Shown here: positions 12,468 to 55,696 of the stretch, piece after piece | Position numbering within the stretch: position 1 is the first letter of the stretch | Layout: the number at the start of each line of letters is the position of its first letter | Source of the DNA: Octopus vulgaris | Lineage: Eukaryota | Assembly: GCA_951406725.2 (NCBI GenBank) | Contig: OX597814.1 | Span: forward strand, 6,572,001 to 6,636,000 | Direction of reading: 5' to 3' | DNA length: 64,000 nucleotides | Program-made: the position numbers and the translations under genes | Notes under the pieces: model-generated | The model's input: only the letters and a program-made list of their open reading frames with translations | Databases searched by the model: none | What the model was told of the DNA's origin: nothing

Positions 12468-12516
12468 CTTTATTTTAAGCAGCAGAAAATTGAATTTTCT
12501 GCTGCTTAAAATAAAG
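12468..12516. repeat. Perfect 24-bp-arm hairpin, collapsed relative of 42329-42493
   Basis: ctttattttaagcagcagaaaatt-g-aattttctgctgcttaaaataaag. Upstream 12395-12467 is homologous to 42256-42328. Confidence 0.9.
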
Positions 12517-12529
12517 TATATATATATAT

Positions 12530-12576
<47 letters not shown>

Positions 12577-13069
12577 GTGTGTGCATGTAAGTATATAATA
12601 GAATGTGTTGAAAATCTTTCAAATGATGAGTGTTGACTGGGTGCAGGAAAAATCCCATTAAACTTCATTTGTCGAGGCCCCTGTTTGAAAAGGTTCCATA
12701 CTAGGAAAGCTCAAGACAGGATAGAAGGTGACTTGGAGTTATGGTAGTGATTGAAAAAATAGAACAATAGTGGTCATCACCATCATTGTTTCATGTTTGT
12801 TTTCCATTCTGGCATGGGTTGGAAGGTTTGACTAAGGACTGGCAAGCAAGGAGGCTGCACTAGACTCCAATCTGATCAGACAACGTTTCTACAGCTGGAT
12901 GCCCTTCCTGACACCAACCACTCCCTGAGTGTAGTGGGTGTACAGAAAAATGTGTTATGAAAAGTCAACAAAATTTGGATGCAATCAAAGTTGGTGTACA
13001 GACAAGTGATAGGTGTATATATAGTTAGACCTATATAGCTGTTGTGTATAGTTAGGTGTATATATGTGC

Positions 13070-13740
13070 CCTCAACCACTGCTCTCTTTCTCCACTGCTA
13101 TATTTCATTCTAAACACCCTCTCTTATCTGCTAACATTCTCAATACTCTCCCATATATCTATCATCATGATCTACCTACAATAACAGCCCCTTATGTGTC
13201 CCTATATTTCCCTCTTCACTTCTCCTACACCTTGCACATCATCCCACTACTTTTTGTTCTATTCTCCTTCATGTGCCCCTCCCCCCCTATATCTCGCATA
13301 TTGCCCCCCACCTCTCCATTACTGGTGTTCCCCATCAGCTACATCCCTCCCCCGCCCTTGTTCATCTCTCATTACATTAACCTCTACCTCCACCTGCTCT
13401 TATCCTCCCCCTCTTGCCCTCTGATGAGTATCCGCACACTCCCTCATCCCCTCCCATATCCTCCCCCTCTTGCCCTCTGATGAGTATCCACACACTCCCT
13501 CATCCCCTCCCTTATGCTCACCCTCTTGGGAGACTGTTCTGGTACCCCATCACTATCTTCCTTTCGCCTCCTCCAGCCATGTATATTTCCTCTGTAACAA
13601 GACACCTGTGCTTCCCCCCCCACCATCATACTTTAGTCTTTCAACACCTGGCATAAAGCCATCCACCTCCACCTTCCCCTCCCGAATGCTTCCTGGTTGT
13701 AGGGGCTTTTCGTTTTCCCTTTTATTCGGTTCTTTTCTAT
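13070..13740. repeat. C/T-rich low-complexity tract with a 56-nt tandem duplication (13405-13515); similar tracts at 5060-5450 and 28515-29130
   Basis: cctccccctcttgccctctgatgagtatcc occurs twice. Each tract is followed by a + strand RTE-like tail, so it is probably the 3' UTR of an older RTE subfamily. Confidence 0.65.
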
Positions 13741-14287
13741 CTTACAAGCTACATGGCAAACTCACTAGTATTGGTGGCACAAAAACAAAAGGTACCGAGT
13801 CCACTCTGTAAAGTGGCTGGCATTAGGAAGGGCATCCAGCTGTAGAGACCATGCAAAAGATGACACTGGAGCTTGACGGAGCCCTGCACCTTACCAGTTA
13901 CCTGTGGAACCACCTTAACCCATGCCAGCATGAAAAGCGGACGTTAAATGATGATGATCCCCTTTCCAGTTGGGGCAACCATGTATCTCCCCTACAGCAG
14001 GTTACCTGTTTCTCTCCCCCAATAATTGCTTTAGCCTTTCAACACCTGGTAAAAAGTCACTTCCTACCCACCTCTCCCAAACTCCACCCCCTCACACACA
14101 CACAACACACACAAGCACTTAGTTGAGGGAGATTTTTCCTATTCTTTACACATCTTGCAAGTTCCTTGACAACCATACTAATGCCAGTGGCACAAAAAAA
14201 GTGTAAAGTTACTGGCATTAAGAAGGGCACCCACCTCTACAGCCCTTATCAAAGCTAACACTGAAACCCAACAGTTTTGATAAATGA

Positions 14288-18165: not shown

Positions 18166-19539
18166 CATACACACACACGGACATGTAGATACTCTAGTAA
18201 ACACAAATCGAAATATTAGCTAATCAACTAAAACATCATGCTTTGCCATTTAAAGTGGCAGACCATCCAAATTTAATGTTAAAGAAACAGATAGGAACTA
18301 TAATGATGATAATAATTATCAGTGCTTTGAGAATAGTACCAAATGGTGCTCTTAAACTCTATGGTGAAATATCAGAAAACTCAACTACAAAATAGTTTTG
18401 CCCTGGTTACTGCTCACTTCCTAAGAATAATGGTTTCAAAGTCACAGATATTACAACAAACTTTTGACAGAATCTTAAGTCTCAGTGTCTGGTCTCTTTT
18501 CCTTGCTGGTCATAAATAACAGCCATAGGAAAATATCCATCTTGCCTTTTGTTGAAGTCCAAGAGTGAGATTTGGAACAATTTGTATAAAAGAAAAGCAA
18601 CAACAAGGTAAATAATATTAATAATAATTTTGGTTTCAAATTTTGGCACGAGGCCAGCAATTTTGGGGGAGGGGTTAAATCAATTACATCCACCCCAGTG
18701 CTCAACTGGTACTTATTTTATCCACCCTGTAAGGATGAAAGGCAAAGTGGAGCTCAGTGGAATTTGAACTCAGAATGTAAAGACGGACGTCACGTTTTGG
18801 CTCGAAATTCATGTAATACAAAGCAAACAAAAATGTGTGTGTGAATGTATGTGTACATATATATGTGTGTGTGTGAATGTATGTGTACATATATATGTGT
18901 GTGTGTGTGAGTAGTTATTGTGATGTTTGTAGAATTATAATTTTAATGATAACATGCTATTTGTAGATAAATATAATTTTTGTTTTGATTGCCTTTTTGA
19001 GTTTCTTCAAAATTGTTTCTGTTCACTGATGATGATGATGATGATGATGATTTGTAGAGATGTTGTTGTTGTTGCTGTTGTTTGTAGCATTAACATAAAA
19101 CCAGATTCCATACTGCGTAGTATTTAGCCGTGGTTGACTACCATAACTGTTTGCGTTGGCTGCAGTGGTTGGCATTTTCTGTTATTTAGTTGCTGTGGTT
19201 ATGTGTTTCTTTCTGTTGTAGTGCAAAGTGATTCTGTGTCCTTTCAGTTTTAATTATTTTCTGTGCTAGAACAAAGAAACTTTTCAGCAATTATTTATCT
19301 TTTGTAAGTTCAAAACTACAAAACAATCACCTTTTCAGCTTCATCTTGTTTATAAATTTTAAAAATTCCTTTTTCAACCGTTTAATCAACATTTAAACCT
19401 CTCTAATTCATTTTTAATCAAAACATTTTTTCCAATATTTGTTTCTGATGTGTAACAATCTGCATTTAAATATTTACAAATGAATTTAACTTTTACAAAT
19501 TCAATGTATTTCAAATATATAGAATTTGTAAATCATGTA

Positions 19540-19686
19540 TGTGTGTTTTTTTTTCTGTCCCTTTCTGTGGAAGAGCGTAGGCTCGAAATATAACAGACTT
19601 TTTCTATTCCTGAGCGTTATACTAATACATCTGTTTGTTTTGTACACCACCTGTCTTTGTCTTTTGTTGTTTTTTTCATAAACTCT

Positions 19687-19692
<6 letters not shown>
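19540..19692 (+). mobile_element. Short Penelope-type terminal-repeat family with a hammerhead-like variant; other copies at 29598-29761 (+), 30255-30420 (-), 48592-48750 (-)
   Basis: Four homologous ~150-bp copies, each abutting (TA)n. Each has cttt-CTGTRGA-a-GAGC-gtag-GCTC-(G/A)AAA..., i.e. a GAGC/GCTC stem II with a non-canonical core. Confidence 0.55.
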
Positions 19693-19736
<44 letters not shown>

Positions 19737-20380: not shown

Positions 20381-21688
20381 AGCAATGATACTGTTCTGTG
20401 CAGTGAATAACTAAATGAAAGTCAATATCTCATAATTGTGTAGGAGAGCAGCAGAATGGTTCATAAGGTTGCAGCTAAATGGTATTGATGACTGGAGAAT
20501 TATAGGAAACCATGGACATACTCTAATTGTGAAAATTGGTGCATTTCAACTTAAAACGTAGCCCTGGGGGTCAATATCTGGTTAAAATGTTATCAGCTGA
20601 GTTATGGTGATTCTGAATAATACTTATTGGGGTAAAGACAGTCCTGTATAATCTCAGAAAATATCAGATTACATTTCTGGAATGATATTGGGATATATTA
20701 GCATATAAAGAATAATATAATTTATTATATATTTGTAAATCAGGATTTATGTTATATCTATATATATATATTACTGATATTTCTTGCTGTCTGCTTGGCT
20801 CTGTAGTTAAGGAGTATGTTTTGCCAGGTTTGATCCCATTCTGTGGTAGAGGATGAGTCATTTTTCCAAAGACGGGTTTTTTTCTGAGTGAAATTTTTGA
20901 GGTGAAAACTGTGAAGAAACCTGCTTTATAATAAATGTAGATTCAAATTGTGTGTTGGTGTGTGTGTGTGTGTGTCTATTACTGAAATTGAATTCTTATC
21001 TCATGACTGAAGTTTGATGCAACTGCAGTATCGCGAAACGTGAATGGTAAGAGAATAAAAGCTCATGCTTCACGTGCGTTGAGCTTTACCTTTCTCATTT
21101 GTTCAGCTTAATTCAATGTTTGATCTGATCTGAGATCATGTGCTGAATCAAAAACAATTGCAGCATGGACGGTGTTTAGAAGCCATTTAAAAACACAAAA
21201 AACCGTTAGATTCACTTCAACATTTAAATTTAATTTTCCAATATATATATATATATTCAAATAAAGGCTATAAACCTCATTAAGAGATAATAAAATCCAA
21301 TGAAAATACCGGTTAGCTACTAATCCATAGAAAGTTCAAGTATAAAGTGACTATATCATCATCATCATCATCATCATCGTTTAACGTCCGTTCTCCATGC
21401 TAGCATGGGTTGGACGGTTCGACCGGGGATCTGGGAAGCCAGAAGGCTGCACCAGGCTCCAGTCTGATCTGGCAGTGTTTCTACAGCTGGATGCCCTTCC
21501 TAACGCCAACCACTCCGTGAGTGTAGTGGGTGCTTTTTACGTGCCACCTGCACAGGTGCCAGGCGAGGCTGGCAATGGTCACGGTCGGATTGGTGTATTT
21601 TATGTGCCACCGGCACGAATAAAGAGAAAATGGAGAAGCAATAAATAAAATATTTTATTAATTACCTCTCCATTTTCTCCTTCTTTGT

Positions 21689-21733: not shown

Positions 21734-22632
21734 CTACAGTGTCACAAATGTGTCAATGGTTCTGCAGTTTGACATAGTTTGTCATTTTGAACGCTTTAAC
21801 TGCTCTGCATGGGATTGGTTCTCTGTGAGGCTGTTGAGAAATGAAATATTCTAAGGATGCCATTATATTGCATCAATATTTTTAATTGACAGTTTTAATG
21901 AATGTCTCTTGAAATTGAAAAATTTTATCAAATCACAGTTGCCTCCTTCTATTAGGAAACAATGGTCAAGAAATCCAACCTCTGCATTTTACTTAAAAAT
22001 CTGTTGTTAACTCTTTGACTGGTTTCAGTCTCTGAACTGTCACCCTGCTGGTGCCCTCCCTCGTCAATTCTCTTGGGGCCGAGTTCTTTTCTTTTTTATA
22101 TTTTTAAAATCTGTTTTTGTTAAAGGGCAACATTGCCTTTGATGTAACTTTGACTGATTTACTTTAGTAAACAGCGGTATAGGCACACACACACACACAC
22201 ACACACGACAATGTCTGAGCTGGGCAAAACTTCAGAGTCACTGTTTATAATATTCCTGTTTAAGTTTAATAAATTTTTACTCTACAAAAATATAGAGTAA
22301 CCATCAGATTAATATAAAATTGTTGTAACTGATTATAAAAACAAACAGTAACATAACATTATATATTTCTTTATTGCCCACAAGGGGCTAAACATAGAAG
22401 GGACAAACAAGGACAGACAAAGGGATTAAGTCGATTATATCGACCCAGTGCGAAACTGGTACTTTATTTATTGACCCCGAGAGGATGAAAGGCAAAGTCG
22501 ACCCCGGCGGAATTTGAACTCAGAACGTAACGACAGACGAAATACCGCTAAGCATTTCGTCCGGCGCGCTAACGTTTCTGCCAGCTCGCCGCCATAACAT
22601 TATATGTGCGCACACACACACACACACGTGAC

Positions 22633-22783
22633 GATGATGATGATAGCTGTGGGGTTGTACCTAAAATGTTTGCAAGCACATAGGTCTGAGTTCAATCCTA
22701 TAATGCTGCAGAAACCTTTTGCTGCCCAGCAACAGATGAGTGAAACTGGGAGGACAGAAGCTGAACACATGTTGGACACACAC

Positions 22784-22819
<36 letters not shown>

Positions 22820-22973
22820 CCACACCCAACTTGTGTTCAGCTTCTGTCCTCCCAGTTTCACTCATCTGTTGCTGGGCAGCAAAAGGGTTCCGCAGCATTA
22901 TAGGATTGAACTCATACCTATGTGCTTGCAAAGCAAACATTTTATGTACAACCATACAGCTATCATCATCATC
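22633..22973. repeat. Inverted repeat with ~143-bp arms around a CA/TA/TG microsatellite
   Basis: ttttgctgcccagcaacagatgagtgaaactgggaggacagaagctgaacaca is exactly reversed in the right arm. Confidence 0.93.
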
Positions 22974-24891
22974 ATCATAATCATCGTTTAACGTCCGTTT
23001 TCCGCACTAGCACGGGTTGGACGGTTCGACCGGGGTCTGAGAAGCCAGGGGCTGCACCAGGCTCCAGTCTGATCTGGCAGAGTTTCTACAGCTGGATGCC
23101 CTTCCTAATGCCAACCATTCCGCGAGTGTAGTGGGTGCTTTTTACGTGCCACCTGCACAGGTGCCTGGGGGGTCTGGCATATCATCGTTTAATGTCTGCT
23201 TTCCATGCTGGCATGGATTGGACAGTTTGACAGGACCTGGCAGGCCAGGGAGTTGTGCAGGCTCCTATTGTCTGTTGTAGCATGTTTTCTATGGCTGGAT
23301 ACCCTTCCTAATGCCAACCACTTTACAGTGTCCACTGGTGCATTTTTGCAACCCCAGCATGAGTGCATTTTATGTGGCACTAGCACCTGTAAGGGACAAG
23401 CCTGCATCTATGACTGACAGCAGTTTTACTTAAGTATGGCTGCGTTTATGTATGAATATAACTGTGTCTGTTTTCACTACAGTCACATGGTTATACATGC
23501 ACCTATGCACACACACACACACACACACATTACATCTAATGAAAAATGCACGAATATGAAATATAAAAGATAAAAGATGTTTCTTCCTCCTTTCTTACCT
23601 GTTTACTGCTCTAATTGGTTCTTAAATGAATTAAATTATCTGCTTTAGAATTAAATTACAAATGAGTGTTCCAGTAATAACTAGCTTAAAAGCTTTTAGA
23701 TGTTTGCCTTTCTCTCTTCTCCACCCAGTTTGTCTGTTCCTTTATCAACATTGATTGGCAGGTATTAAATAAATATAAAACGATATTACAATAAAATACT
23801 TATTGAATTGGGTCTCCTCTATGGAGTGGCCTATCTTTGAAACGTTCTCACATATTTGTTGAATTGTATTCTGTGGATGGTTTATGAAATGATTATCATC
23901 ATTATTATTTCTTTATTTGAAAAGAAAAGCAGGCTACTATTGTCAGACCTAAAAATTCTTTACAGAGGCTGTATTCCAACAAATTAGGAGAATTGAAAGC
24001 CAATTATAAATACTTTATTTGAAAATTTAAATTTGTTGAAGATGTATTATTTTATGCCAATTGAGATGCATTTGTTAACTAGACCCAAGAAAAATTCCAC
24101 AATAGAGAAATATTTTTTTTAATTGCGTTTCAAAAATACTGAGTAATTGAAGGAATAGGGATTTAAAATCTATAATAATAACCATTGTTTTGTAACATAA
24201 TTTTAAAAATATGTTTTTAACTGAATCCCTTTTTTTTTTTATTATTATTATTATTTGACTATTTGACTACAAATAGCTTTCAAAGCAGCAGTGGATATTA
24301 GGGAGGTGACTTCACAGAAATATGACACATATTTGTGTTGTTTGGAGAAAGTCATTAAATAATTACAGTCAGAACTCTGATGAAGTTCCAACAACAAAAG
24401 ATAAAAACTTGAATTTTTGTAATTGCTTTTCAATATAAATGTTATTATTTTATCAAACTGTTTGCTTAAAACATGTTGTTACTAATTCTTTAACCCTTTC
24501 AAATCCAGAACCCCTGCTGATCCTCTTATAAAACTCTTCCATACCACTGGCTTTACTGTAAAATTTTTCTGATAATGGTGATCTGATTATTCTAAGATCC
24601 ATTTTACTGAGGGTCAAATTTAGTGACTTGAAATTAAATCTTTTTAAGAAAAATGCTTTCATTTTTCTTCTTTCTTTATTGTGATAACTTTTAATAGAAT
24701 CTTTATTTTACTGAATTATGTTCTGCTTCTCTGTTAATAAAACAGTTTTTTTTTCTGTGTTTTGTTTGTATATAACCCCCTTGTTTTTTGTTGGGTTTTT
24801 TTTTCAGTCAAAAGTTCTTTCTCTCTGTTTAAATGTTTAAACTTTATTTCTTAACTGCATAAAATATCTATTTCTGTATTCTTATTTGCAG

Positions 24892-42215: not shown

Positions 42216-42251
<36 letters not shown>

Positions 42252-42402: not shown

Positions 42403-42419
42403 TGTTTAGAATCTAAGCA

Positions 42420-42698: not shown

Positions 42699-42731
<33 letters not shown>

Positions 42732-42852: not shown

Positions 42853-42895
<43 letters not shown>

Positions 42896-44464
42896 CACAC
42901 ACACACGGATGTGTGTCTGTGTTCGTTTTCCTTGTGTTCACTGGTTTGTAAGCTCCAATGACATTAGCTTCCTGCTAATGACATTTCTTTGCAGTCCTCC
43001 ATGAAAGGATATCCAAGCTTTCTGTCATGGTGTAACATGTGGCACAGTCTGTTAACAAAAGACTGCTTAAACAGTGTTTTTTGTATCCAGTTCATGCCGG
43101 AAGCATGTTTGCATTGTTCAGAAGAATTGGAGAGTATTATGTTTGTTCGTTCACTGCCATTCCCTCTGGTGTTCAAAAATTCCTCTTAACTCATTCTGTT
43201 AGTGTTGTCTTGCTCTGCTTGTTTTTAGTTTTTGAACATCTCTAGAGGTAGGTTTCCCTACTAACGGTTAGAAAATGTCAATCCATTGAAGATTTTTCAG
43301 TTTACTCCCCATGCGATGGCCTACAATATTTCAAAGAACTTCTGCTTTGGTGTACTTTTTCATTTTCAATTTAGGTGGATGCCATCTCAAAACCATTCTG
43401 TAGAACTTCAAAGGAATGTCTTTAAAATTGTCATAGTACAATGTCTTTAAATAATTTCATTGCCAACTGTGAAAGAGAAAATAATGTGATACCATTTGGA
43501 ATCTATATCTGATTTCAGTTTGGCAATCAAATTATCAAAATTCTGTAGAATAACTGAAAGAGAAGAGAAGACATCTTAGCTTGCCATTTCAGCCAATTTT
43601 TTTCTTTCTCTCCTCTCATAAATGTCATCATACCAACTGATCTTTTGTGTTTTTGATTTCTGATATGTTTAACACACAACTAGTTATTGCATATTTTATG
43701 TTTTGCACTTCACCATTTGTAAATACAGATTTCTTGCTGACACAGAATAATCATATTTGATCGTCAACAAAGTGATTAACGTGGATAACACCAGCTGTAG
43801 CTGCTTTAATTAGATTATCATACAACCGCCAACTTAGATTTCACTCACACATCTCGCAGTTAGATTCACATCAGTAAAATAATATAGAAGCTTCAACCGT
43901 TGGACTGTGGCAATACTGGGGCATCAACATCAATTATTATTATTATTATTACTATTTAGGCAGTGAGCTGACAGAATCATCAGCATACTGGGCAAAATGC
44001 TTAGCAGTATTTCGCCTATTTCTGCATTCTGAGTTCAAATTCTGCTGAGGTCGACTTTGCCTTTCATCCTTTTGGGGTTGATAAATTAAGTACCAGTTGA
44101 ACGCTGGGGTTAATCTAATTGACCCAGCCCCTCCCCCAAAATGGCTGCCCTTGAGGTAAAATTTGAAACCATTATTATTATTATTATTATTAATATTATA
44201 ACAAAGGTAATATACCACTGAGGAAGCCTGTATGAGATTTCATAGAATTAACAATTAAATTTATCTCCAATTACAAGCTTCCATCTTGAAACAAAAATGC
44301 AATATTTTGAATAATACAGTCCAAAATATGGTTGAAATGCCTTTGGTCATGTGATCAGTCAGGCTTGACCTGGGCCAAAACTATGATATAACATTTGAAT
44401 CCATTACAAATAATGATTTATGTTGTATATTTATCCCCTTTTCTAAAATTTTATTTCTGCGCAG

Positions 44465-44668
44465 GTAAAGAAAGATCTTGAAGTTCGTGCCCAAAGAAGA
44501 ACAAACATGCTCTCATGGCTTGGACTAGGCATGATGGGATTGCAATTTGGAATTCTTGCTCGGCTCACTTGGTGGGAATATTCTTGGGATATCATGGAAC
44601 CTGTAACTTATTTTGTTACCTATGGAACCACAATGGCCATGTATGCTTATTTTGTTGTTACTAAACAG
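44465..44668 (+). CDS. MCU: MCU pore exon (TM1, WDIMEP selectivity filter, TM2), 204 nt, phase 0 to 0
   Basis: Acceptor tttctgcgcag| and donor CAG|gtaaaa. Translates [68 protein letters not shown], containing the diagnostic MCU DIME motif. Confidence 0.99.
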
Positions 44669-44754
44669 GTAAAAATTATTCATACATTTTAAACAAGAGT
44701 TATTTTCTGAGAATATTCACCCCCATCCCAAAAACGTCCTGTAATATACATATA

Positions 44755-44947
44755 TATATATAATTATAAAAATAAGGGTTTAGCAACAAGTTGCTTGACC
44801 ACATACCGAAAAGTGACAAATATTGTTGTCTGTGGAGACATATTTTTGTAGAAAAAGGAAATAGTAGTCTTTTGGCTGCTATTTCTAAAATTTTTGGTAT
44901 GTGGTCAAGCAACTTGTTGCAAAACCATTATTGTTATAATTATATAT
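44755..44947. repeat. Inverted repeat (~57-bp arms, 25-bp perfect core) 87 nt downstream of the MCU pore exon
   Basis: gcaacaagttgcttgaccacatacc (44783-44807) / ggtatgtggtcaagcaacttgttgc (44896-44920). Confidence 0.9.
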
Positions 44948-45068
44948 AAAAAAAACTTTGTGTATAAGTTTTTACCGAATATAGTCCTTTTCCATACCGA
45001 AAAACTACTAGGTGTAATTTGTTGATTTTATTAAATTAATAATTTTTCACCCTATATCTGTAATGATA

Positions 45069-45099
<31 letters not shown>

Positions 45100-45789
45100 G
45101 TCTATTTTGTAGACCTATGAGAAGATCATTAATAGAATTTCTGAAACACTCTCAAGATGCTTACATGCTTATAGACTTTTGCATAATGCAGTAGGAATGA
45201 ATTTTAGTAACTGTTAACCAAGTTAATAATTTACCTTAAGATATGGATGAATTAAACTTCACTCTAGCCTCCCCATTCTTATAAACACTAAGTAGCTATT
45301 TAATTCACTGTGTGAACGTATGTGTGCCAAGCCACACGTGTGCGTATGCTTATATCTTAATTCCGCTGAGGTCGACTTTGCCTTTCATCCTTTCGGGGTC
45401 GATAAATAAAGTACCAGTTTCGCACTGGGGGCCATATAATCGACTCAATCCCTTCGTCTGTCCTTGTTTGTCCCCTCTATGTTTAGCCCCTTATGGGCAG
45501 TAAAGAAATATATATCTTTGTGGATGTTTGTACGAGTGAGTGTGCATGCACCAAACAACCTAAGCGAGGGCATTTATACATCCACATCCGTTAAGTTAGA
45601 TTTAACATTTGTTTCGCTGTATTGTGCATTCGTCACTTCTGGCATCTAACATTTTTTTATTGATCTTCTATAAAAATGAAGCTGCATCCATTAATTTGCT
45701 GCTTTTCTATACACAAATCATGAAGATATCTTTTAGAACGATCATTATTTTAATGAGATACATCTTATTATCACTTGAAGAGGCACATC

Positions 45790-45873
45790 TACACTGATGG
45801 ATACTCCTAAAACAGTTGTTAAATATCCCATCCGTGAAGGATTGATGCTAGATGGGTTGAAACAATTGTAGTA
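45790..45873 (+). ncRNA. Degenerate hammerhead-like motif
   Basis: taca-CTGATGG-...cccatc...gatgggtt-GAAAC-AATT-GTA-gta. Palindromic ACAATTGT loop III; weak stem I. Confidence 0.4.
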
Positions 45874-46005
45874 ATTAAGAAACAGTTTCATATCTTCCAT
45901 CTTCTGTCTCCCTCATTAATCAAATATATATAATACCACATATATAAACTAGTTCTTGCCATCTATAATGGTTTGTCCATCTTCTGTGCGTGTGTGTATA
46001 TGTGT

Positions 46006-46587
46006 CATCATCGTTTAGCGTCCGCTTTCCATGCTAGCATGGGTTGGACGGTTCGACCGGGGTCTGGGAAGCCAGAAGGCTGCACCAGGCCCAGTCTGAT
46101 CTGGCAATGTTTCTATGGCTGGATGCCCTTCCTAACACCAACCACTCCGTGAGTGTAGTGGGTGCTTTTACATGCCAGACAAGGCTGGCAAACAGCCACG
46201 ATCGGATGGTGCTTTTTACGTGCCACCAGCATGGGGGCCAGGTGAGGCTGGCAACGGCCACATTCGGATGGTGCTTTTTATGTGCCACCGGCACGAGGCC
46301 AGTCAAGGCAGCGCTGGCAACGGCCACGTTCGGATGGTTTTCTTACATACCACCAGCACTGGTATCACAGCTGCAATTTCCATTGATGTTGATCGATTTT
46401 GATTTTGATTTTCACTTGCCTCAATAGGTCTTTGCAAGTAGAGTTTTGTGTCCCAAGAAGGAAAGGTATGCATAAGTGGACTGGCTACATCCCAGGTAGA
46501 GGCCACGGGTTATGGTCTCACTTCTCCTGCCGAGTCTTCTCGCGCACAGCATACTTCCAAAGGTCTCGGTCTCTAGTAATTTCCTCG
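46006..46587 (-). mobile_element. RTE LINE 3' end copy
   Basis: Same structure as 35711-36372. Confidence 0.85.
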
Positions 46588-46596
46588 AGAGTGAAA

Positions 46597-46670
<74 letters not shown>

Positions 46671-48531
46671 GAACTCACACAATGATATAAATATCTGTGA
46701 GGGCCTTATGTGTTAGTATATATCAACTCTTACTTAGATAAGAGTTGATATACACTAACAGCAGAGTTCCTACAAAGAACACAAAGTTGTCGTATTTGGT
46801 AAAGAAAGTCAGCCATATTTGTTTCATTAACAGCCACACTGTATGAATATATTTTCATATAATCATTGAAACATTGCTGGTAGGCTGATGCTGCTGCTGC
46901 CAAAATACCCTTCTGTAAACTTCATCCAACAGTCAGTCAAATTTCTCAATCCAATACTTCTAATTATATTCAAAATTGAATTTTTTCATTAAAAATCTGA
47001 TTTCTGTTTATCCGTATGTCCTTATCCCCATGCAGCTGTGATGTGGAGTTGATTTCTGAAATTTTTATCCAACTGTAGTCGCATGTTAAATTCATACTAG
47101 CCCTTAATCATAAACTGCTACTCCTCCTGCAATATCTCCTCAGGTACAGTTTCCTTGTAAAATTAGTTCATTGTGAATTGCTTACCATCATTGCTAGTTG
47201 AGCAAACTTGAAATCCTGCTCAGTGGCAATTCTAAACATTCATAACTATTTCTGTTTGTGCTTCACTCTGTGAATAGCCAAACAGTTTCTGTCACAGTGA
47301 AATGATCAATCATTGTTTACTTTTAGGTGTTGTTCACTGGAATTTATTGTTAATAATAATCACCGTCCGCTTTCCATGCTGGCATCGGCTGGACAATTTG
47401 ACTGAGGTCTGGCAAGCTAGATGGCTGCACCAGGCTCCAATCTGATCTGGCAGTTTCTACAGCTGGATACCCTTCCTAATGCCAAACACTCCGAGAGTGT
47501 AGTGGGTGCTTTTACGTGCCCTGGCACAAGGGCCAGTTAGGCGGTACTGGCAACGACTACACTCAAAAGGTGTTTTTTACGTGCCACCTGCACAGGAGCC
47601 AGTCCAGTGGCACTGGCAACGATCACACTCGAATGGTTGGTTTTATGTGCCACCAGCAAGGGAGCCAGTCAGCAGCCCTGGCAACGATTACGCTCGGATG
47701 ATGCTTTTAACATTCCACTGGCGCAATAATGATAATACTTTCTTATTTTGTCACAAGGCCAGCAATTTTAAAGGAAGGGGTTAGTTGATTTTATCAACCC
47801 CAATGCTCAGCCTGCTTTTATTGTATTGACTCTGAAAAGATGAAAGGCAAAGACTTTGGTAGAATTTGAACTCAGAATGTAAAGATGGACAAAATGTATC
47901 TCAGTATTTGGTCCGGTGTACTAATGATTGTGCCAGCTTGCTGCCTTGGTTTCAAATTTTGACACTCTTAAAAAAACAAAAAATTCTCATGAGTTCCGTT
48001 CACATCCAAAGAAAAACAGTGTCAACTTGAAAATACTTGATTCTCTTAAAATTCTTTCGAAACTGAATTATTACAAATTTAACAGAATCTTAATTCTCAG
48101 ATTCTGGTGTCCTTCCCATGTAGTATATCACTGCTAATCATGAATAACACCCTTAATTCATTGCTATAAGAATGAATATATTTTGTATATGACACACAGA
48201 CCTGTCTGTGTGTCATACCTGAGTTTCTATTTAGAGTCACCATCATTTAATGTTCATTTTGCATGCTGGCATAAGGTGGACAGTGTGACAGCAACTGACA
48301 AGCCAGATGGCTGTGCAAGGCTCCAGTTGTCTATTTTGGGGTGGTTTCTATGGCTGGATTTCCTTCCTAACACCAACCACTTTACAGAGTGTACTGGGTA
48401 CTTTTCATGTGATCCCAGCATGGGGGCTTTGCTTTTTACATGGTACCAACATAGGTGCTTTTTATGTGGTACCAACACGCAATGGTAGTTTGCATCATTC
48501 CCTCACATCAAACCTGCAATATCTGTCTACA

Positions 48532-48593
<62 letters not shown>

Positions 48594-48840
48594 GGGAGAG
48601 TTTACGAAAAAAACAAAAGATGAAGACAGGTGGTGTACAAAACAAACAGATGTATTAGTATAACGCTCAGGAATAGAAAAAGTCTTTTGCTTTTTGAGCC
48701 TACGCTCTTCCACAGAAAGGGACACAGAAAAAAACAAGGAGAGAAAAAAAAGGATAAGATCGTTAAACTAAAATAAAATGAAATAACAATTTTATCAAGT
48801 GGCCAGCATGGAAAAAATAACCTTCAAAGGTAATAATTAT

Positions 48841-49011
48841 TAAAATTATAAATTAGGATATCTACGAGAAACCACCGTGCTGAAAATAGCAGCCATGATC
48901 TGACTCTAAAGCCACCTTGCGATATGGACAATTAAGGTGGCCTTAGAGTTGGATCATGGCTGCTATTTTCAGCATGTGGTATCTCGTAAGATACCTTAAT
49001 TTATAATTTTA
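48841..49011. repeat. Inverted repeat with ~78-bp arms and 15-nt loop; same family as 36810-37620
   Basis: gctgaaaatagcagccatgatc...gccacctt / aaggtggc...gatcatggctgctattttcagc. Confidence 0.9.
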
Positions 49012-49196
49012 TATATATATATATATATATTTGACCGATAACCAGAAGTCACTCTCTGTTTCTCTCTCTCTCACACATTCTTTCACACCTCCCCCTCTTT
49101 AGAAAAGTGTGTTGAGAATAACTGATGAAAGAGCAAAACTGATTTTAGTGTTTGTAAGATTTGTTCACCAATCTAATTCTTAGCCAACAGGAACAT

Positions 49197-49605
49197 GACA
49201 AGGCGGCGATCTGGCAGAGACATTAGCACGCCGGGCCAAATGCTTATCGATATTTCATCTGTCGCTACGTTCTGAGTTCAAATTCCGCCGAAGTCAACTT
49301 TGCCTTTCATCCTTTTGGGGTTGATTAAATAAGTACCAGTTATGCACTGGGGTTGATGTAATCGACTTAATCCGTTTGTCCTCTCTGTGTTTAGCCCCTT
49401 GTGGGTAGTAAAGAAATAGGTATTTCGTCTGCCGCTACGTTCTGAGTTCAAATTCTGCCGAGGTCAACTTTGCCTTTTATCCTTTCGGGGTCAATTAAAT
49501 AAGTACCAGTTAAGCACTGGGGTCGATATAATCGACTTAATCCATTTGTCTGTCCTTGTTTGTCCTCTCTGTGTTTAGCCCCTTGTGGGTAGTAAAGAAA
49601 TAGAA
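49197..49605 (+). mobile_element. tRNA-derived SINE with Nin/Deu-like domain, partially tandem-duplicated; relatives at 22363-22594 (-), 43955-44170, 45358-45510, 47735-47960 (-), 18630-18790 (-), 7855-8200 (-), 63705-63875
   Basis: gagttcaaattcc B box, then gcctttcatcctttcggggtcgataaa..agtaccag domain. The second unit starts at about 49418. Confidence 0.8.
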
Positions 49606-49798
49606 ATAGGAACATGACAAATGCCTGCTAGCTCCTGATATTTCATGTCACTTTAACATGTAGCCATGCATTCTGGCCATCATACAACTGCCGATATATA
49701 AGAGACCAATCTTGCAATGAAGCTAGTTTCTATATCCTTAATTACTCTTTCTATGTCTAAATCAATTTGCCTAATGAGATTTCTATTCTCTTTTCCAG

Positions 49799-49996
49799 GA
49801 ATATAATTTCCTTGAAGTTAAAGACCGACAATATCTGCTGAGTTTCTACAAAAATGCCGAGAAAAAACGCCTGGACGTGCACAAGTATAACCACTTACGA
49901 GATGCTATTTCTCAGGTGGAATACGATCTTCTTCGATTAAGGGATCCTCTTCAATTACAGCTGCCTATAGGTCACATACAGAGGCAAAAGTCCTGA
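49799..49996 (+). CDS. MCU: MCU terminal coding exon (CC2 and C-terminus), stop TGA at 49994-49996
   Basis: Acceptor ttttccag|. Translates EYNFLEVKDRQYLLSFYKNAEKKRLDVHKYNHLRDAISQVEYDLLRLRDPLQLQLPIGHIQRQKS*, matching the MCU C-terminus (DRQYLL..F, KYNQLKDAI, LKRLRDPLQ). In frame with the previous exon. Confidence 0.97.
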   Translation, partial: EYNFLEVKDRQYLLSFYKNAEKKRLDVHKYNHLRDAISQVEYDLLRLRDPLQLQLPIGHIQRQKS

Positions 49997-50056
49997 GATT
50001 GGCTCAGATTTCACAGCCCCTCACTGCGACTAAGTGTTACTGTGTTATTGTTCATG

Positions 50057-50135
50057 GACTATTTCTACTACTTTGACTACTACTACTACTTCAAATACTA
50101 CTACTACTACTACAACTACTACTACTACTACTACT
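50057..50135 (+). repeat. (TAC)n microsatellite 60 nt after the MCU stop
   Basis: Interrupted ctactactac run. Confidence 0.9.
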
Positions 50136-52600
50136 TATGGTGTTGGCCACCGCAGTTGCGATGCACTATGACTTTGCTTCAACTAATTCATTCATTTGTG
50201 GTACTTTTACTCAACCTTTTATAGTAAACATCTTTGTATATTAACTGTAGCATCTTGTTGCCAATTGTTAACCTCAATCACAGAAATATCTTCTTATTTT
50301 GTTACTAATATCTACAATCTTGATTGGTCAGAATTAAATAATAATAATAATGATAATAATAATGATAACATGGAAACGTGAAAAAGTGAAGCTTTTTATA
50401 AAGGAACAAAACAACAAAAAAAAAAGCGTTAAAGAAACCGTAAAACTCTCTCTCGCCTGTCATTGGTTCAAACAAATCTCTCCAGTCTCCAAGATTGTTG
50501 AGATGAATTTGCATTGCTTTATGATTAACAACTTAAACTGTTTTATTGTAAGTCTTTTATTTGTTTTTGTTGTATTCTTGATTTTTTTTCTTCTTTTGTT
50601 TAAGAAAAAGAAAAAGATGTTTACATGACTGAAGTGTTTTGTTAACAGACCTCTTTGAACTGAAATCCACCCTTTCAAATAGTTTACTCATAATAATTAA
50701 ATGGGTGGCTAAGACACTTAAAACACCAATTTAGACATTAAGGGGTTTTTTTCTTTTTTTTTTCTTCTTCCATTTTCCATTTACTTTCAACCAAAACAAA
50801 CAGCGGTGTGTTTCTGCTAGATCAATGTATAATTAAAACAATATACCCTATTTAATTTGACCCCCATCTTAATTAGTGATTTTCTTAACGAAAAGTCTCT
50901 TCTTTGGCTTTCCTGCTTCTTTATTTCTTTCTTCCAAAATCCTATATTCTTCACAGTATATTTATAGCTAAAACTCTACAGTATTTTCTGCACTTTAGAT
51001 CATTTAATTAAAGCATTTAATTAAAAGAAATCTTGGAAATATTAAGCTATCAAATTTGTTGTTGATGTTTGAAATCTTATATTTCATTTCATTTAACATC
51101 CAACTGACTCTAAACCCTAACTTCTTTAATCTTCAATTGCTCACCTAATATAGTTTGGGGCCCCCAAAGCAATCTATAACATTGTTATTGGTAAATGTTC
51201 ATCAATAATCCACATTAATTACGAAATATCAATAGGAGAGTGTATTACAATACACTTGGCCCTGCTTATGAAAAATGGCTTCTTTTAAACAACAACTTGT
51301 GCAGAATTGACATTGAATCTCAAATATATTTGCTGCTGAAGGTTTAAAAATGAAACAAAATTTAGTTTTGTTGATGTTAAAGCATATAATTAGTGAATCT
51401 CATTTAATTAGTATTGGCAGTGGAGGTAGTGATTGTCTGGCTAGACATTTACTTTTGGATTCTCCTCTATAATATCAGAGCAATTCATCCGCAAATGCTT
51501 CTGCAAACCCACTGATGGTTCCATAGAGATTATTCTGGGTGATTCTAGAAAAAAAGTAATCATTTCCTAGCCTCAACCCATCTCTCTCTCAGCCTTCCTA
51601 CATATCTATGTCTGTTTATGTATTTATCTATCCATATATATATATATATATATCTTTGTGATTACACCTTTATCCACATACTTATCTCTCCATCCATCTA
51701 TCTATCCATCCCTCTCTCTCTCTCTCACTCTCTCCCCAAAACTATAAAATTCTTTCATGACAATGTTTCTTCCACAAATCACTCTTTGCTCCCTATTGTG
51801 ATTTCTCCCCTCAATCTTACTCTGAAAATTCCTTCTTAAAATGATAAAAGTTTTGTCTTTCTGATAAAGTCCATTGTGATACTAAAACTATTATTATTCC
51901 ATTTGAAAATGGTCGTCGTCTTTCTCAGCACAAATTCCTTAAATTTTGATTGCAGTTCTTTTACTGTCTCTAAATCTAGCCTACTTTTGTTTTAAAAACT
52001 GATATTGTACAGCATGTTCTCCCACCCCACTAATACTCAGTTTCTCAAATATGATTTGTCAAAACAAATGGATATTTTTTCTCCCTTTCAGTGTTTCTGA
52101 TATCTATAGAAATATTCCCTTCCTGGGACTTTCTACAGATCAATTTTCATTTTCAAGTACACTTGGGAAAAAGTGTGAAAGCAACTGTGTGGTGTGTGTA
52201 TATAATCCATATCAACATGGAAAGCAGACATAAAATGAGGATTACTATATATATATCTTTGCTAATGATATATGGATGGACAGATAACCAGTGTCCATGA
52301 AACAGAAAAACCATTTTCAGGTCCATCAAGTCACTGGTGATCTCCATTTCAAGAGTTTTGTATTAAGATGGTGACATTTCTTGAAGACTGAAAAGTAATC
52401 TCTTCTATTGTGGAGATATTCCTCATTAAACAGCCAGAGCAATCACCCATGAAACTGTCTTTTCAAATAAATGCTTAAATTTCACATCCTAAACTCTACC
52501 TTTTCAATCATTTGGATACTTGTTGGAATCCTTGAAGGATAAGCCAATCATTGAACTCCTGACTTGGAAATAGTTCCAGATTTATTTTTGGTGACTACTG

Positions 52601-52700
52601 ACTCTGGCTCTGTCAGTTTGACTCTGGCTCTGTCAGTTTGACTCTGGCTCTGTCAGTTTGACTCTGGCTCTGTCAGTTTGACTCTGGCTCTGTCAGTTTG
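52601..52700 (+). repeat. Perfect minisatellite, 5 x 20 nt ACTCTGGCTCTGTCAGTTTG
   Basis: Five identical units read directly. Confidence 0.97.
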
Positions 52701-52975
52701 ACTTGTTCCTTCTTTTGATTAGAAACCTTGCAGTTTCACTATTTTCAGGAAAGGATTCCCTGCTTTTTTTTTAGTTTGCCTTCTTTTGGCAAACTGGAAG
52801 TCAAATATTTTAAGGGTTAAGGAAAATTAAGAAGTGTATTCCTTTGAAAAATGAATAACAGCAGCAGCAGCTTGTTTGTGTGTGTAGAATTGGTCGCGGC
52901 CAGAAACTGAAATGAAATCATTGATTTTATACACGATGAGTTTACCTCAACCATCTTCTACTTGCTGCCCCAGAG

Positions 52976-53019
<44 letters not shown>

Positions 53020-55494
53020 GCATGCACACACATCCTTCGCTGTGTGAATGTCATCTAAATGCCACATAAATGTTTGTACTTATGTATAATCTTCTTTACA
53101 CTGGAACAAATTGATATGATTAAGGCTTGAAGAGAATGAACAAAATATCATATACCTGTGCATCTAACCTTATTCTTCTTGCTGCCTCCCATAGTTTTTA
53201 TTATCTTTTAACTCTTAATGCCTCCCATAGATTGTATCCTTTAACTTTTATCGCCTTCCATAGTTTTTCATCTTTTAACCCTTATTGCCTCCCATACATC
53301 TTTTATCTCTCTTAACTGCTTTTCAGTCTTTCCTTTACTGCCATCTTTTGCTTTTTGGATTATCTGAATATGTCCAACTAAAATATGCTTTCAACACACC
53401 TGTATTCAATTCTGATGTGACTATGTGTGTATATGTATATATTCACACTCACACATGCATAAGTATGTGTTTCTGTGTATATATGTATGTATATGAACGT
53501 ACAGACACATGCAAAGTTGTACAGATTTTAAGGCTGGTTATTCAATATCAAAACAGCTTCGATTTATTTTGCATTTTCGTTTTTATTTTGCATTTTCGTT
53601 CTTATTTTTTTTGTTTGTTTGTTTATAAGCTACATTTTCATTGCCAAATGCTGATAAAAATTATACACCCAATGATATTATTTTGTAGATATCTTTTGGA
53701 TGACAACAACAACAACTCATTTCTGTGCCATGTGTGTCTCCCAGTGGCAAATTTGTGAAATAAAACATGGCAACTTTGTTTTAAAGAACAAAAATAAAGC
53801 ATAAAACATTTTGACCATTTCTGTTCACCTGAATTTCTTATATTGATCAGTTTTTACCCAATCATATGAGTAAAGATTGATGTCTTCCTTCAATTTTATT
53901 TCTCCATCCCTCCTCACTCACCTTCTCATTTACTTAGATATTTCTCTATAATCCTCTGTAATCCAATTTATAGATTACTCTATACAAATTAAGTTCTTAT
54001 AAATCTACAATTATTAAAATTATAATATTTCAGTTAAACAATTATCTTAATCTATATGGATATTTTTTTCCCTCCTCAACTCTTCTAACATTATATTAAG
54101 TCCTTCTGCACTTTAATATACATATTACATTGACTCACTGATTCGAAAAGCTGGCCAACACTTTCATTATATATTTATATAATCTTAAAATGAAGCTTCA
54201 TGAAAAGAGTCAAAGACTTGGGTTTTTTTCTTAAAAAAAAGAAAAAAAACCTCAGTAAATGTTTCAAGGTCTTGTTGAAACCACTGGAAACTCTAACCCC
54301 ATGTAAAGCAGATCAAATTATTGAATCTTGCATTCTAAATTTATGCCATCCCTTTGGAGTATATGGCTGAGTGATAACGAGTGGATGTCAGTGTGTGTGT
54401 TTGGATTTTTAACCTTTTACACCTTTGATTTTGGTGAAAAATCTACATCCGGAAACCTGTGTTTCTTAATAAATTACTTCTCTGTCAGTTTAAAATACCT
54501 TTTTTTTTTCCTTTTTTTTTTTTTTACAAAATGTCCTGGACAAACAGTTGTTGACGCCAGATTTTAGAGAAGGGGGAAAAAGCCATTTTTCATCTGGGGT
54601 TTAACTTTGTTGGAAAGCTGACTGGAATTAACCCAAGGCAGCTGGTTCCATAATAAAAGGGTGGGTAATACTGACTGTTGAGGTGATTGTGAAAGCTGCT
54701 GAGCTAATAAACTCCAGCTTTTCACTAAAATATTCACCCAATTGTTGTTTACTAATGTTTATAATAATTGTCAATACAAATGAACAAAAAAAAAATTGCT
54801 TTTTCTTTTTGATTTAAGTATCTTTTTTTCTTTTTTTTTTTCTTCTTTGTTTTAAATTTACTCTACCTGCCAAGGTTGTTGGGTAGAATAATAAATGAAA
54901 TGATGGAAAACATGAAAATGTTATAGGTTTCAAATATCTCTTGTTATCTAGCTACCAAAGTTTATATTGTTACAAGCTTCAAAATCAAAGAATTCAAACC
55001 CTTTTCCATAACATCATCTCTGCTAATTTACCAACTTCGTTTCTATTTTTTTTTTTTATTTCAATATTCTTTATTATGAAGCTTAAAATAAAGATCTGGT
55101 GATATATATATATATGTCTATGAAGTAAGGTGTTGCAAACATCTTTCTCTTACAATAACGTCCATTTTAGCACTGCCATTAACCAAGAAAATGTTTCCAA
55201 TCAACCAATTAATGGTTAGGATACCAATTATCATCAACCCAGCTACTTTGATACAGTTTCGGTGAGTATCTAAGCTTCTGGATTTCTGATTAGTCTTTAT
55301 CCCTTCTGTTAGTGTGCATATGTGTATATATAAAATGTGGTTAGTCAAAAGAATTTTCTTCTAACTAACCTTATTACAAATATACTATTCTGTACACTAT
55401 GGAAAATGTTTTATTCCTCCTATACATATATATTGGTAAAAACGATAAGATAACAAAAGAAAGAAAGAGACCTCAATATTATGTAAATAGAGGA

Positions 55495-55696
55495 ATTTAT
55501 CTGTAAATGTCATATGTGACAATTATTCGGTAGCCAAGATAAAACTCTGAGTTTCATATGCCGAGGTGGAAATCCACAGCGTTTTTCAGATGGCCAGATA
55601 ACCGAAGAGATGGTGGTGTGGATTTCCACCTCAGCATCCGAAACTCAGAGTTTTATCTTGGCTACCGAATAATTGTCACATATCTTACAGATAAAT
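55495..55696. repeat. Inverted repeat with a 44-bp perfect core in the putative 3' UTR
   Basis: atatgtgacaattattcggtagccaagataaaactctgagtttc (55512-55555) / reverse complement at 55640-55683. Confidence 0.92.
55597..55657 (+). ncRNA. Hammerhead-like motif in the putative 3' UTR (core U4 changed to C)
   Basis: gataa-CCGAAGA-gatg...catcc-GAAAC-TCAGA-GTT-ttatc, with stem I gataa/ttatc. Confidence 0.55.

Follow-up and report, generated by a model that had tools for sequence, protein, structure and literature searches.

The window analyzed here, the whole 64-kb stretch of Octopus vulgaris DNA, contains coding exons of the MCU gene. The exon carrying the pore motif (44465-44668, + strand) matched a PDB entry (E = 1.6e-30) and Octopus MCU proteins at 100%. 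An alternative coding exon of 48 nt with AG/GT ends (11826-11873, +) and a further coding exon (24892-25055, +) were located by tblastn with P0008, and the final coding exon, including the stop codon (49799-49996, +), was located by tblastn and by the starts of X6 and X20 contigs. These contigs begin at the final exon and are preceded by 800-900 unrelated letters, which is the pattern expected of spliced RNA; X6 and X20 are presumed to be RNA runs, a guessed label backed only by contigs that start at an exon edge. Pieces of these contigs, with no single contig across, outline a likely long MCU 3' UTR (49997-55475, +).

An earlier note had placed about ten long fold-back hairpins within the MCU transcription unit. 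Nine are intronic in the Octopus MCU gene, whereas the tenth (55495) is outside the coding span, 5.5 kb beyond the stop codon and at the distal end of the likely 3' UTR, with the presumed-RNA contigs ending at 55475, 20 nt before its left arm. Most hairpins are 2-8 kb from the nearest exon; 44755 starts ~85 nt downstream of an MCU exon, and the stub at 48754-49011 is 781 nt from the last one.

All ten inverted repeats were recovered by self-BLAST and then aligned, with arms of 24-395 nt that are 83-100% alike, in keeping with the range of 24 to about 400 bp given previously. The shortest, 12468, has arms 12468-12491 and 12493-12516 (spacer of 1 nt; 24/24 columns match), and the longest, 29598, has arms 29598-29992 and 30031-30420 (spacer 38; 366/398, or 163/164 in its non-microsatellite part). 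The remainder are 22633 (22629-22784/22811-22977, spacer 26, 148/167), 36372 (36372-36527/36536-36690, spacer 8, 153/156), 36810 (36819-36852/37194-37227, spacer 341, 34/34), 38936 (38936-39088/39096-39249, spacer 7, 148/154), 42329 (42329-42410/42412-42493, spacer 1, 68/82), 44755 (44760-44812/44891-44943, spacer 78, 49/53), 48841 (48841-48918/48934-49011, spacer 15, 70/79), and 55495 (55495-55578/55617-55696, spacer 38, 77/84). Small inverted repeats at 18117, 19492, 21615, 46711, 48188, and 55828 are excluded from this count.

Self-comparison of the window yielded 12 local matches of at least 75 bits, comprising the ten hairpins plus 18117 and 21615, and none was obtained in any of 15 local dinucleotide shuffles. 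A harsher null, in which real 150-nt blocks were permuted and flipped, gave 4-9 matches with spacers up to 600 nt (15 runs) versus 12 observed, and 0-7 matches (mean 2.7) with spacers up to 60 nt versus 11 observed, a number reached in 0 of 40 runs; this null is crude because cut SINEs and microsatellites themselves create hairpins. The reported proximity to (TA)n and (CA)n tracts held, since every one of the ten hairpins has a TA/CA/TG run no more than 5 nt from at least one of its ends. Such proximity applied to 13 of 20 insertion ends, compared with 9.8% of random positions, although this figure is partly circular because several ends were placed by eye at a microsatellite edge. The description of the hairpins as long near-perfect palindromes applies to 29598, 36372, and 38936 and not to the other seven, and the notion that their stability is unusual is weak given that most arms have already drifted apart by 7-17%. 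Nor are the hairpins all built from different sequences: 12468 and 42329 belong to one family and 36810 and 48841 to another, while solo copies related to 29598 lie at 19544-19732 and 48594-48751.

Eight of the ten hairpins share an organization, here termed class A, in which 5'-truncated copies of a repeat are joined head to head with their 3' ends outward. Polarity was assigned from a hammerhead or a family alignment for 12468, 36810, 38936, 42329, 48841, and 55495, and from tail position only for 36372 and 44755. A one-sided tail with two fixed ends recurs in three families (A, B, and C), across two to three copies of each, and is seen in a single copy each at 55495, 36372, and 44755; none was seen at 38936. 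In many of the stubs, one arm is the longer by 60-105 nt. No target-site duplication was seen at the hairpins.

Family A comprises the stubs at 12398-12516, flanked by microsatellites on both sides, and 42259-42493, in which both arms carry a decayed hammerhead with a core 15 nt from the axis (a motif recognized by eye that failed the descriptor described below). Both have a 70-nt tail (12398-12467 and 42259-42328), identical at 63 of 70 positions, so that the long end falls at 12398 and 42259 and the short end at 12516 and 42493. A solo copy on the minus strand was identified by alignment (40132-40207). Family B comprises a complex at 36811-37622, in which a short inverted stub (36811-36852) is followed by two direct copies, one with the long end (36867-37240) and one with the short end (37349-37622), and a stub at 48754-49011 with an 87-nt tail (48754-48840) and (TA)n after its right arm. 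The long end of this family is found at 36811, 37240, and 48754 and the short end at 37622 and 49011; decayed hammerhead-like motifs were noted near 36970, 37283-37318, and 37430. Both arms of 29598 terminate at the short end of family C, and its long end is found in two solo copies, at 19690 in 19544-19690 (+) and at 48594 in 48594-48753 (-), each time at (TA)n.

The other class A stubs are 55433-55696, with a 62-nt tail (55433-55494) and TA flanks on both sides; 38936-39249, with no tail identified; 36372-36780, with ~90 nt of probable tail after the arms that reaches (TA)n and no hammerhead seen; and 44755-45051, with ~100 nt of probable tail beyond the arms that reaches TA-rich sequence. 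The tails of 36372, which has no other copy in the window, and of 44755, likewise a single copy, were set by eye. A 12-nt motif is common to 44755 and family B.

A descriptor scan detected a type I minimal hammerhead with a mismatch-free core at 39126-39173 (+), in which a single unpaired base precedes a stem II of 6 bp, with a palindromic loop 3 and a 4-bp stem I. The same motif, again with a mismatch-free core, occupies the left arm of this hairpin (39012-39059, -), and the 55495 stub carries a motif that has a stem I of 6 bp and a single altered core position (55602-55652, +). The descriptor gave four matches in 64 kb, all inside hairpin structures (~5.5% of the window), a count that alone is marginal because 2 of 30 shuffles also gave four matches and two of the four are arms of one hairpin. 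A looser scan (19 raw matches versus 3-9 in shuffles) was set aside as uninformative. Rfam reported no hammerhead at gathering score across the window and none at E <= 10 in 36300-56000; the 127 sub-threshold matches in the latter interval were rejected as generic hairpins or microsatellites, mostly microRNA models. Hammerheads are decayed in families A and B, and none was found in the arms of 12468, 36372, 44755, or 48841. The sixth core base is changed in all four window copies of family C, and the genome-wide majority letters (rows 48689, 48691, and 48695) restore the second half of the hammerhead core in the copy at 48594-48753.

Two of the ten hairpins (55495 and 48841), together with a family C solo copy, were compared with public sequencing runs. 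Contigs were placed at 88% likeness, which drew in many paralogues and SINE contigs that crowd the hairpin joints. Contig depth over unique flanks was 13-21 (X2) and 45-60 (X3), whereas summed contig depth reached 437,928 (X2) and 988,097 (X3) in the 55495 bin and 24,777 (X2) and 83,951 (X3) in the 48841 bin. Depth at these two hairpins and the solo copy thus exceeds the unique-flank level by a factor of 10^3-10^4 or more, with about 10^4 at 55495. This ratio is not a copy number, and the excess at 55495 and 48841 indicates dispersed repeats rather than duplicated unique DNA. Where one arm carries a letter off the genome-wide majority, the opposite arm has the majority letter in all four informative rows among those listed (48858, 48870, 48877, and 55633), which argues for independent decay of the arms and against a read artefact. 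At 55495, run X6 crosses the left junction with 43 letters and run X3 extends 23 letters into it; none of the contigs listed for 55495 and 48841 spans a hairpin center.

These data bear on whether the near-perfect hairpins (29598, 36372, and perhaps 38936) could be artefacts of fold-back reads or of assembly. The close agreement of their arms (163/164, 153/156, and 148/154, respectively) is what prompts this concern, and the published O. vulgaris assembly was built from Nanopore and 10x data (PMC13282606), though the window may stem from another; all three hairpins lie outside the two compared with runs. Yet seven hairpins have private arm differences or family-defined ends, the 55495 junction is supported by both X6 and X3, and 36372 and 38936 are shaped like decayed hairpins. 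An artefact does not explain the set as a whole, and we regard it as highly improbable for the near-perfect hairpins as a group. For 29598 taken alone, an assembly or fold-back read artefact is rather unlikely.

Two fixed ends, one-sided tails, and head-to-head joining are features of Penelope-like elements (PLEs). PLE insertions, according to the available portions of PMC8557442 and PMC3846280, include head-to-head inverted 5'-truncated copies, one-sided tails, partial tandems, and a bias for (TA)n, and 36810 combines an inverted stub with a tandem. Pairs of minimal hammerheads that lie on opposite strands and are separated by 100-700 bp have been attributed to truncated PLEs (PMC4209133, in part). 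In the O. vulgaris genome, PLEs account for 6.83% of sequence in 190 families (PMC13282606 supplement), compared with ~5.5% of PLE-like sequence in the window. Moreover, a decayed PLE coding remnant lies at 60005-61020 (+), with a GIY-YIG domain at 60713-61015 (Pfam PF01541 at E = 1.1e-5, scoring above the cut-off) and, ahead of it, a C-X4-C-X2-C linker (60660-60686); such a linker is proposed, in the source text available, to direct (TA)n targeting. The remnant has no DNA similarity to the hairpin arms by BLAST and represents a separate family, a protein search with its GIY-YIG domain returned no relative, and none of 93 frames near the hairpins matched a PLE domain.

Collectively, these observations make it quite probable that eight hairpins are Penelope-like head-to-head stubs and that 22633 and 29598 are copy-back duplications. 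Judged from the sequence, each of the eight is likely a short PLE insertion, truncated at the 5' side, in which two copies of the 3' terminal repeat of the element meet head to head within a TA-rich target, and several PLE families are represented. We infer PLE membership from architecture, no arm being tied to a PLE frame. High copy depth at 55495 and 48841, together with ends at the same base across family copies, suggests that each hairpin is the element's own insertion product. The connection to Penelope and to (TA)n proposed in the earlier note is upheld, while a later fold-back of host DNA, as also proposed there, fits only 22633 and 29598 and not the other eight.

A mechanism can be outlined from published PLE biochemistry. 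The GIY-YIG nuclease of the element would cut both strands at AT-rich DNA, and reverse transcription would begin at two fixed internal RNA sites, giving one cDNA per target end and leaving one arm tailed and the other tail-free. Both cDNAs would terminate prematurely, in many cases a short way upstream of the hammerhead. They would then become joined, after which the arms would decay independently. For a lizard PLE, two start sites of reverse transcription are described to produce two fixed ends (PMC11167929, in the text available), so two fixed ends per family are the expected product of such start sites.

The hairpins might instead be non-autonomous DNA transposons (MITE or foldback elements) with arms that are long terminal inverted repeats. 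High copy depth, TA at the ends, and a palindromic shape are compatible with such elements, and a frog palindromic Harbinger repeat plays a comparable part in the portion of PMC5625713 available. However, the arms are unequal, families include solo and tandem copies, the inner point of truncation differs among copies, and both arms carry outward-facing hammerhead motifs; equal terminal inverted repeats, ends fixed in all copies, and a target-site duplication were not found. We therefore give the transposon reading very little weight.

Another possibility is that all ten hairpins arose at the DNA level, when breaks in self-complementary (TA)n or (CA)(TG)n tracts were repaired by fold-back or template switching that copied adjacent DNA. 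Short inverted duplications at yeast breaks are known (PMC11724301, in part), and two hairpins have this character. In 29598, the two arms share letters that depart from the majority of the family, and ~230 nt of irregular microsatellite is mirrored between them, and 22633 is non-PLE sequence mirrored around a CA/TA/TG center. In the eight class A cases, however, the microsatellite lies outside the hairpin and not at its axis, and the arms are ends of repeat families that stop at the same base across loci, which is not expected of random breaks. As an account of all ten, repair is improbable, and we retain PLE insertion for the class A stubs. The two exceptions, class B, are likely copy-back duplications primed within self-complementary microsatellite. 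At 29598-30433, a family C stub and ~230 nt of mixed microsatellite are mirrored tail to tail around a 38-nt loop, and at 22629-22977, ~155 nt with no relative in the window are mirrored, with both outer ends inside the (GAT)n tail of an adjoining SINE. Microhomology-primed copy-back is described for fold-back inverted duplications (accessible text of PMC11724301 and PMC3907307), although those at breaks are mostly 5-34 bp in yeast and very large in humans, compared with 155-395 nt and microsatellite boundaries here. Self-priming of sense PLE RNA is an alternative route to tail-to-tail repeats (PMC3846280, in part).

Comparison with characterized PLEs shows both likenesses and differences. Endonuclease-containing PLEs (Penelope/Poseidon, Neptune, Nematis, and Naiad), as described in the available parts of PMC8557442 and PMC3846280, resemble the stubs in their head-to-head 5'-truncated copies, one-sided tails, tandems, and (TA)n targets at which no target-site duplication can be discerned. 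The octopus sequences differ in being non-coding stubs of 25-155 nt from several families, with tails of ~20-105 nt versus 30-40 nt. Metazoan PLE minimal hammerheads (PMC4209133) are alike in having a type I layout with a short stem I, a long stem II that follows a single unpaired base, and a helix III that is palindromic or missing, and in occurring as opposite-strand pairs 100-700 bp apart; the examples in the text available do not include octopus, and an unchanged core is found here only in 38936. Poseidon PAc of Anolis carolinensis (PMC11167929, in part) likewise has two fixed 3' ends, AT-rich targets, and extension of both target strands, but its mechanism was established in vitro and solely with the lizard element. 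No match emerged to the published octopus consensus of the Naiad clade (Naiad_Ovul and Naiad_Obim, which lack the canonical hammerhead): the Naiad/Chlamys supplement contained none of nine motifs taken from the window, and a 20-nt Naiad 3'-end motif was absent from the window at three mismatches. These exact-word tests are weak for the hammerhead-less stubs. Family C patterns had no match in metagenome or viral contigs.

The stubs are known retroelement debris, newly described for octopus; searches of openly accessible papers, subscription journals aside, turned up no publication that deals with PLE hairpins or hammerheads in octopus. The presence in one window of several families with two fixed 3' ends, and with 5' ends just upstream of the hammerhead, extends the insertion model for PLEs to cephalopod families with longer tails.

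It is plausible, from predicted folds and the octopus editing literature, that the hairpins are a source of double-stranded RNA. A stub in MCU pre-mRNA would fold into a duplex of 24-155 bp, in which the ribozyme motif would be buried, and would be a passive ADAR substrate. Single insertions that form their own RNA duplex, as proposed here, are described for frog Harbinger and lizard Penelope, the latter heavily hyper-edited (PMC5625713, in part), and Drosophila Penelope siRNAs map to inverted parts (available text of PMC3681739). The repeat breakdown in the accessible portion of PMC5625713 omits octopus repeats, and editing of the octopus arms is only proposed. A>G places numbered 18 and 20 in DNA runs and 14 and 16 in presumed RNA runs, numbers that derive from contigs only and are dominated by paralogues.

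Selection could have retained the hairpins for a role in regulating MCU through editing or small RNAs. The placement of 44755 close behind an exon and of 55495 against the end of the 3' UTR fits such a role, as does the enrichment of squid editing in 3' UTR and intronic repeats (PMC9068888, in part). The arms, however, drift like neutral repeats (7-17% in older hairpins), PLE-like content is that of the genome average, and most hairpins are kilobases from exons; retention by selection for regulating MCU is scarcely credible. The hairpins are ordinary retroelement debris and imply nothing special about MCU.

The octopus hyper-editing signal has been measured and, in the text of PMC5625713 available, is not assigned to any repeat; the stubs provide a specific candidate for the self-folding repeats that would produce it. 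That PLE stubs and microsatellite copy-backs are the main source of the unusually abundant near-perfect double-stranded RNA of octopus and of its record hyper-editing signal is a tentative suggestion that we hold with some doubt. For 138 of 5995 50-nt queries from the window (0.023), a near-perfect inverted partner lies no more than 2 kb away, compared with a published genome-wide value of 0.0044 in O. bimaculoides, a lead and not an estimate because the window was chosen for its hairpins. Among the 96 non-simple-repeat queries with a partner, 88 derive from the ten hairpins (45 from class A and 43 from class B) and only eight from ordinary inverted repeat pairs.

All ten inverted repeats described in an earlier note were present in the window, but the interpretation offered there is supported only in part, with insertion of Penelope-like elements (PLEs) favored for eight hairpins and copy-back for two. 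Local dinucleotide shuffles yielded no comparable matches in 15 of 15 runs, versus 12 observed. A block-permutation null gave 4–9 matches with spacers ≤ 600 and 0–7 with spacers ≤ 60, versus 11 observed for the latter, a number reached in 0 of 40 permutations. A microsatellite was within 5 nt of 13 of 20 hairpin ends (some placed by eye) versus 9.8% of random positions. Smaller inverted repeats were also detected at 21615–21688 (adjoining (AT)20), 19492–19532 (at the 5′ side of a copy of repeat family C, described below), 46711–46760, and 48188–48217, as were two distant inverted pairs: 15095–15634/30909–31443 (540 nt, 96.5%, 15 kb apart) and 7971–8134/10020–10183 (164 nt, 97.6%, 1.9 kb apart).

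The eight hairpins that we ascribe to PLEs (class A) begin at 12468, 36372, 36810, 38936, 42329, 44755, 48841, and 55495. When aligned in a common sense, their arms meet at the axis by their 5′ ends, while the 3′ ends face away from it, in most cases into a TA tract. Contrary to the earlier note, the hairpins are not all built from different sequences: 12468 and 42329 belong to one family (A), and 36810 and 48841 belong to another (B). In family A, the short ends fall at the identical base and the opposite arm is extended by 70 nt, with 63 of 70 positions identical between the extensions. In family B, short ends are at 37622 and 49011 and long ends at 36811, 37240, and 48754; 36810 comprises a 42-nt inverted stub followed by two direct copies. 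An extension of 62 nt is present on the left side of 55495, and probable right-hand extensions of ~90 and ~100 nt were placed by eye in 36372 and 44755, respectively; none was seen in the arm alignment of 38936.

This anatomy matches the published PLE insertion unit, for which partial tandems, an adjacent inverted 5′-truncated copy, a one-sided tail, and a (TA)n bias are described in sections of PMC8557442 and PMC3846280. The shared features are the tandem (36810), the inverted truncated copy, the one-sided tail, and the TA ends. Two internal reverse transcription start sites, with both target strands cleaved and extended, are described in part of PMC11167929. By such a mechanism, two cDNAs would be primed, one from each target end, and both would end early before being joined head to head. 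PLEs reportedly comprise 6.83% of the O. vulgaris genome in 190 families with recently active copies (excerpts of PMC13282606; also PMC8967140).

Several other features of these stubs were observed. The arms of 12468 (24/24) and 36819 (34/34) are identical, yet sister copies are 6–10% apart; chance, younger age, or arm-to-arm conversion may account for this. The probable tail of 36372 (36757–36780) ends just after a pyrimidine tract and CAG resembling a 3′ splice site, which would fit a PLE intron end. A 12-nt motif occurs six times with ≤ 1 mismatch (37106, 37568, 44873, 48884, 48957, and 18514; mean of 1.1 and maximum of 4 in shuffles), five times inside PLE-like stubs of two families, and its first nine letters are also near the start of a published octopus Naiad consensus.

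PLEs carry minimal hammerheads paired on opposite strands, according to the sections cited of PMC4209133. A type I minimal-hammerhead descriptor matched four times in the 64 kb: in both arms of 38936 (0 core mismatches), in the right arm of 55495 (1 mismatch), and within the 36810 complex. This count is by itself marginal (mean of 1.0 in shuffles, with 2 of 30 reaching four); the placement of the matches is the stronger point, since class A/PLE-like structures occupy only ~5.5% of the window. An Rfam search of the window found no hammerhead. Decayed motifs were recognized by eye in families A and B, and majority letters at 48689, 48691, and 48695 in public runs restore the second half of the core in a third family (C). 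Three class A hairpins retain a hammerhead within their arms, and in all three the 5′ ends or axes gather just upstream of the core (38936, 29–30 nt; 42329, 15 nt; 55495, 4 and 8 nt), and solo copies at 19544, 36960, 37420, 40132, and 48753 have 5′ ends ~10–36 nt upstream (by eye). Solo hammerhead-like motifs of other families are at 6442 (−) and 37283–37318 (+).

A Pfam scan of 150 of 611 window frames identified a decayed PLE coding frame at 60005–61020 (+), with a GIY-YIG domain above the cut-off (E = 1.1e-5) that follows a Neptune/Nematis-type C-X4-C-X2-C linker. The frame has several breaks, no terminal repeat was recognized behind it, and it has no homology to any hairpin arm; a formal link between the stubs and a PLE frame is therefore missing. 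Published octopus Naiads did not match the window by exact motifs, and the part of a preprint cited here (10.64898/2026.07.22.740005) treats tandem retrozymes and has no bearing on inverted stubs. Elsewhere, a TTAA-bounded, piggyBac-like non-autonomous element was placed by eye at ~40726–41808 (no Pfam match in its frames), and a weak zf-RVT match at 8176–8568 (+; E = 0.0019, below cut-off) is likely a LINE remnant.

Fold-back duplication at microsatellites, as had been proposed for the hairpins at large, fits 22633 and 29598, which have a microsatellite at the axis, but probably not class A. In 29598, a family C stub and ~230 nt of irregular TA/TG repeat form a tail-to-tail mirror image around a 38-nt loop. 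Its non-repeat parts are alike at 163 of 164 positions and share letters that depart from the family majority, which implies that one arm was copied from the other or that both derive from one decayed template; 29598 may instead be an assembly artifact. In 22633, the mirrored sequence is ~155 nt long and has no relative elsewhere in the window; its two arms differ by 8 mismatches and 2 gaps, and the outer end of each falls within the (GAT)n tail of an adjoining SINE. Self-priming of read-through RNA by a PLE enzyme may alternatively have generated these hairpins, a route to tail-to-tail repeats named in part of PMC3846280. Our preferred reading is copy-back primed in a self-complementary microsatellite.

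Public runs bear on whether the arms are artifacts. In 20 of 24 listed runs (9 studies), 0.71–0.86 of sampled words of 48594–55690 were present. Contigs from two runs guessed to be DNA (X2 and X3) and two guessed to be RNA (X6 and X20) were compared for two of the ten hairpins, 48841 and 55495. Unique flank contigs had depths of 13–21 (X2) and 45–60 (X3). Summed depths, which are not copy numbers, were 437,928 and 988,097 for the 55495 bin, 24,777 and 83,951 for the 48841 bin, and 899,023 and 2,270,363 for the solo family C bin (X2 and X3, respectively); we read these as high-copy dispersed repeats and take nothing more from depth. Among the rows listed, one arm departs from the majority letter at 48858, 48870, 48877, and 55633 where the opposite arm has it; rows 55511 and 55616 (gap or loop) and 48788 (tail) do not bear on this comparison. 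The two arms have thus decayed independently, which a fold-back read, an artifact raised in the earlier note, cannot produce. None of the contigs listed for these runs spans a hairpin center, so the inverted geometry itself is unconfirmed from reads.

Nine of the ten hairpins are intronic in MCU, the mitochondrial calcium uniporter gene, while 55495, which the earlier note placed within the transcription unit, is 5.4 kb downstream of the stop. Coding exons (+) include 24892–25055 (one residue as in O. vulgaris, unlike O. bimaculoides), 44465–44668 (pore region, 100% identity with Octopus proteins), 49799–49996, and an alternative 48-nt exon at 11826–11873 found in one Octopus isoform (P0008) and missing from others. 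X6 contigs extend piecewise through this region to 55475, reaching 43 letters inside the 55495 insertion, and none of the pieces listed crosses its arms. The 3′ UTR (49997–55475) has an apparent length of at least 5.5 kb; a gap in X6 cover at 50964–51674 is covered by X20. Nothing in the analysis points to selection on MCU.

The + strand of every hairpin has a stable in silico fold (−29 to −612 kcal/mol), such that MCU pre-mRNA would carry hairpin duplexes. A>G places in contigs numbered 18 and 20 in DNA-guess runs and 14 and 16 in RNA-guess runs, and hence speak neither for nor against editing. Of the species compared in PMC5625713, octopus ranks first in hyper-editing and in its fraction of near-perfect dsRNA (0.0044), with no repeat assigned; the same study describes heavy editing of Penelope in lizard and of a palindromic repeat in frog. 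Portions of other studies describe squid non-coding editing coinciding with repeats of 3′ UTRs and introns (PMC9068888), young repeats as general targets of ADAR (10.1101/2020.01.19.911685), and siRNAs from fly Penelope inverted repeats (PMC3681739). By a statistic similar to that of PMC5625713, 138 of 5,995 window queries had a near-perfect inverted partner (88 in the ten hairpins, 42 in simple repeats, and 8 elsewhere); because the window was chosen for its hairpins and BLAST settings differ, the hairpin share is a lead only and no genome estimate. Tentatively, and with more doubt than confidence, PLE-like hairpin stubs might drive octopus hyper-editing.
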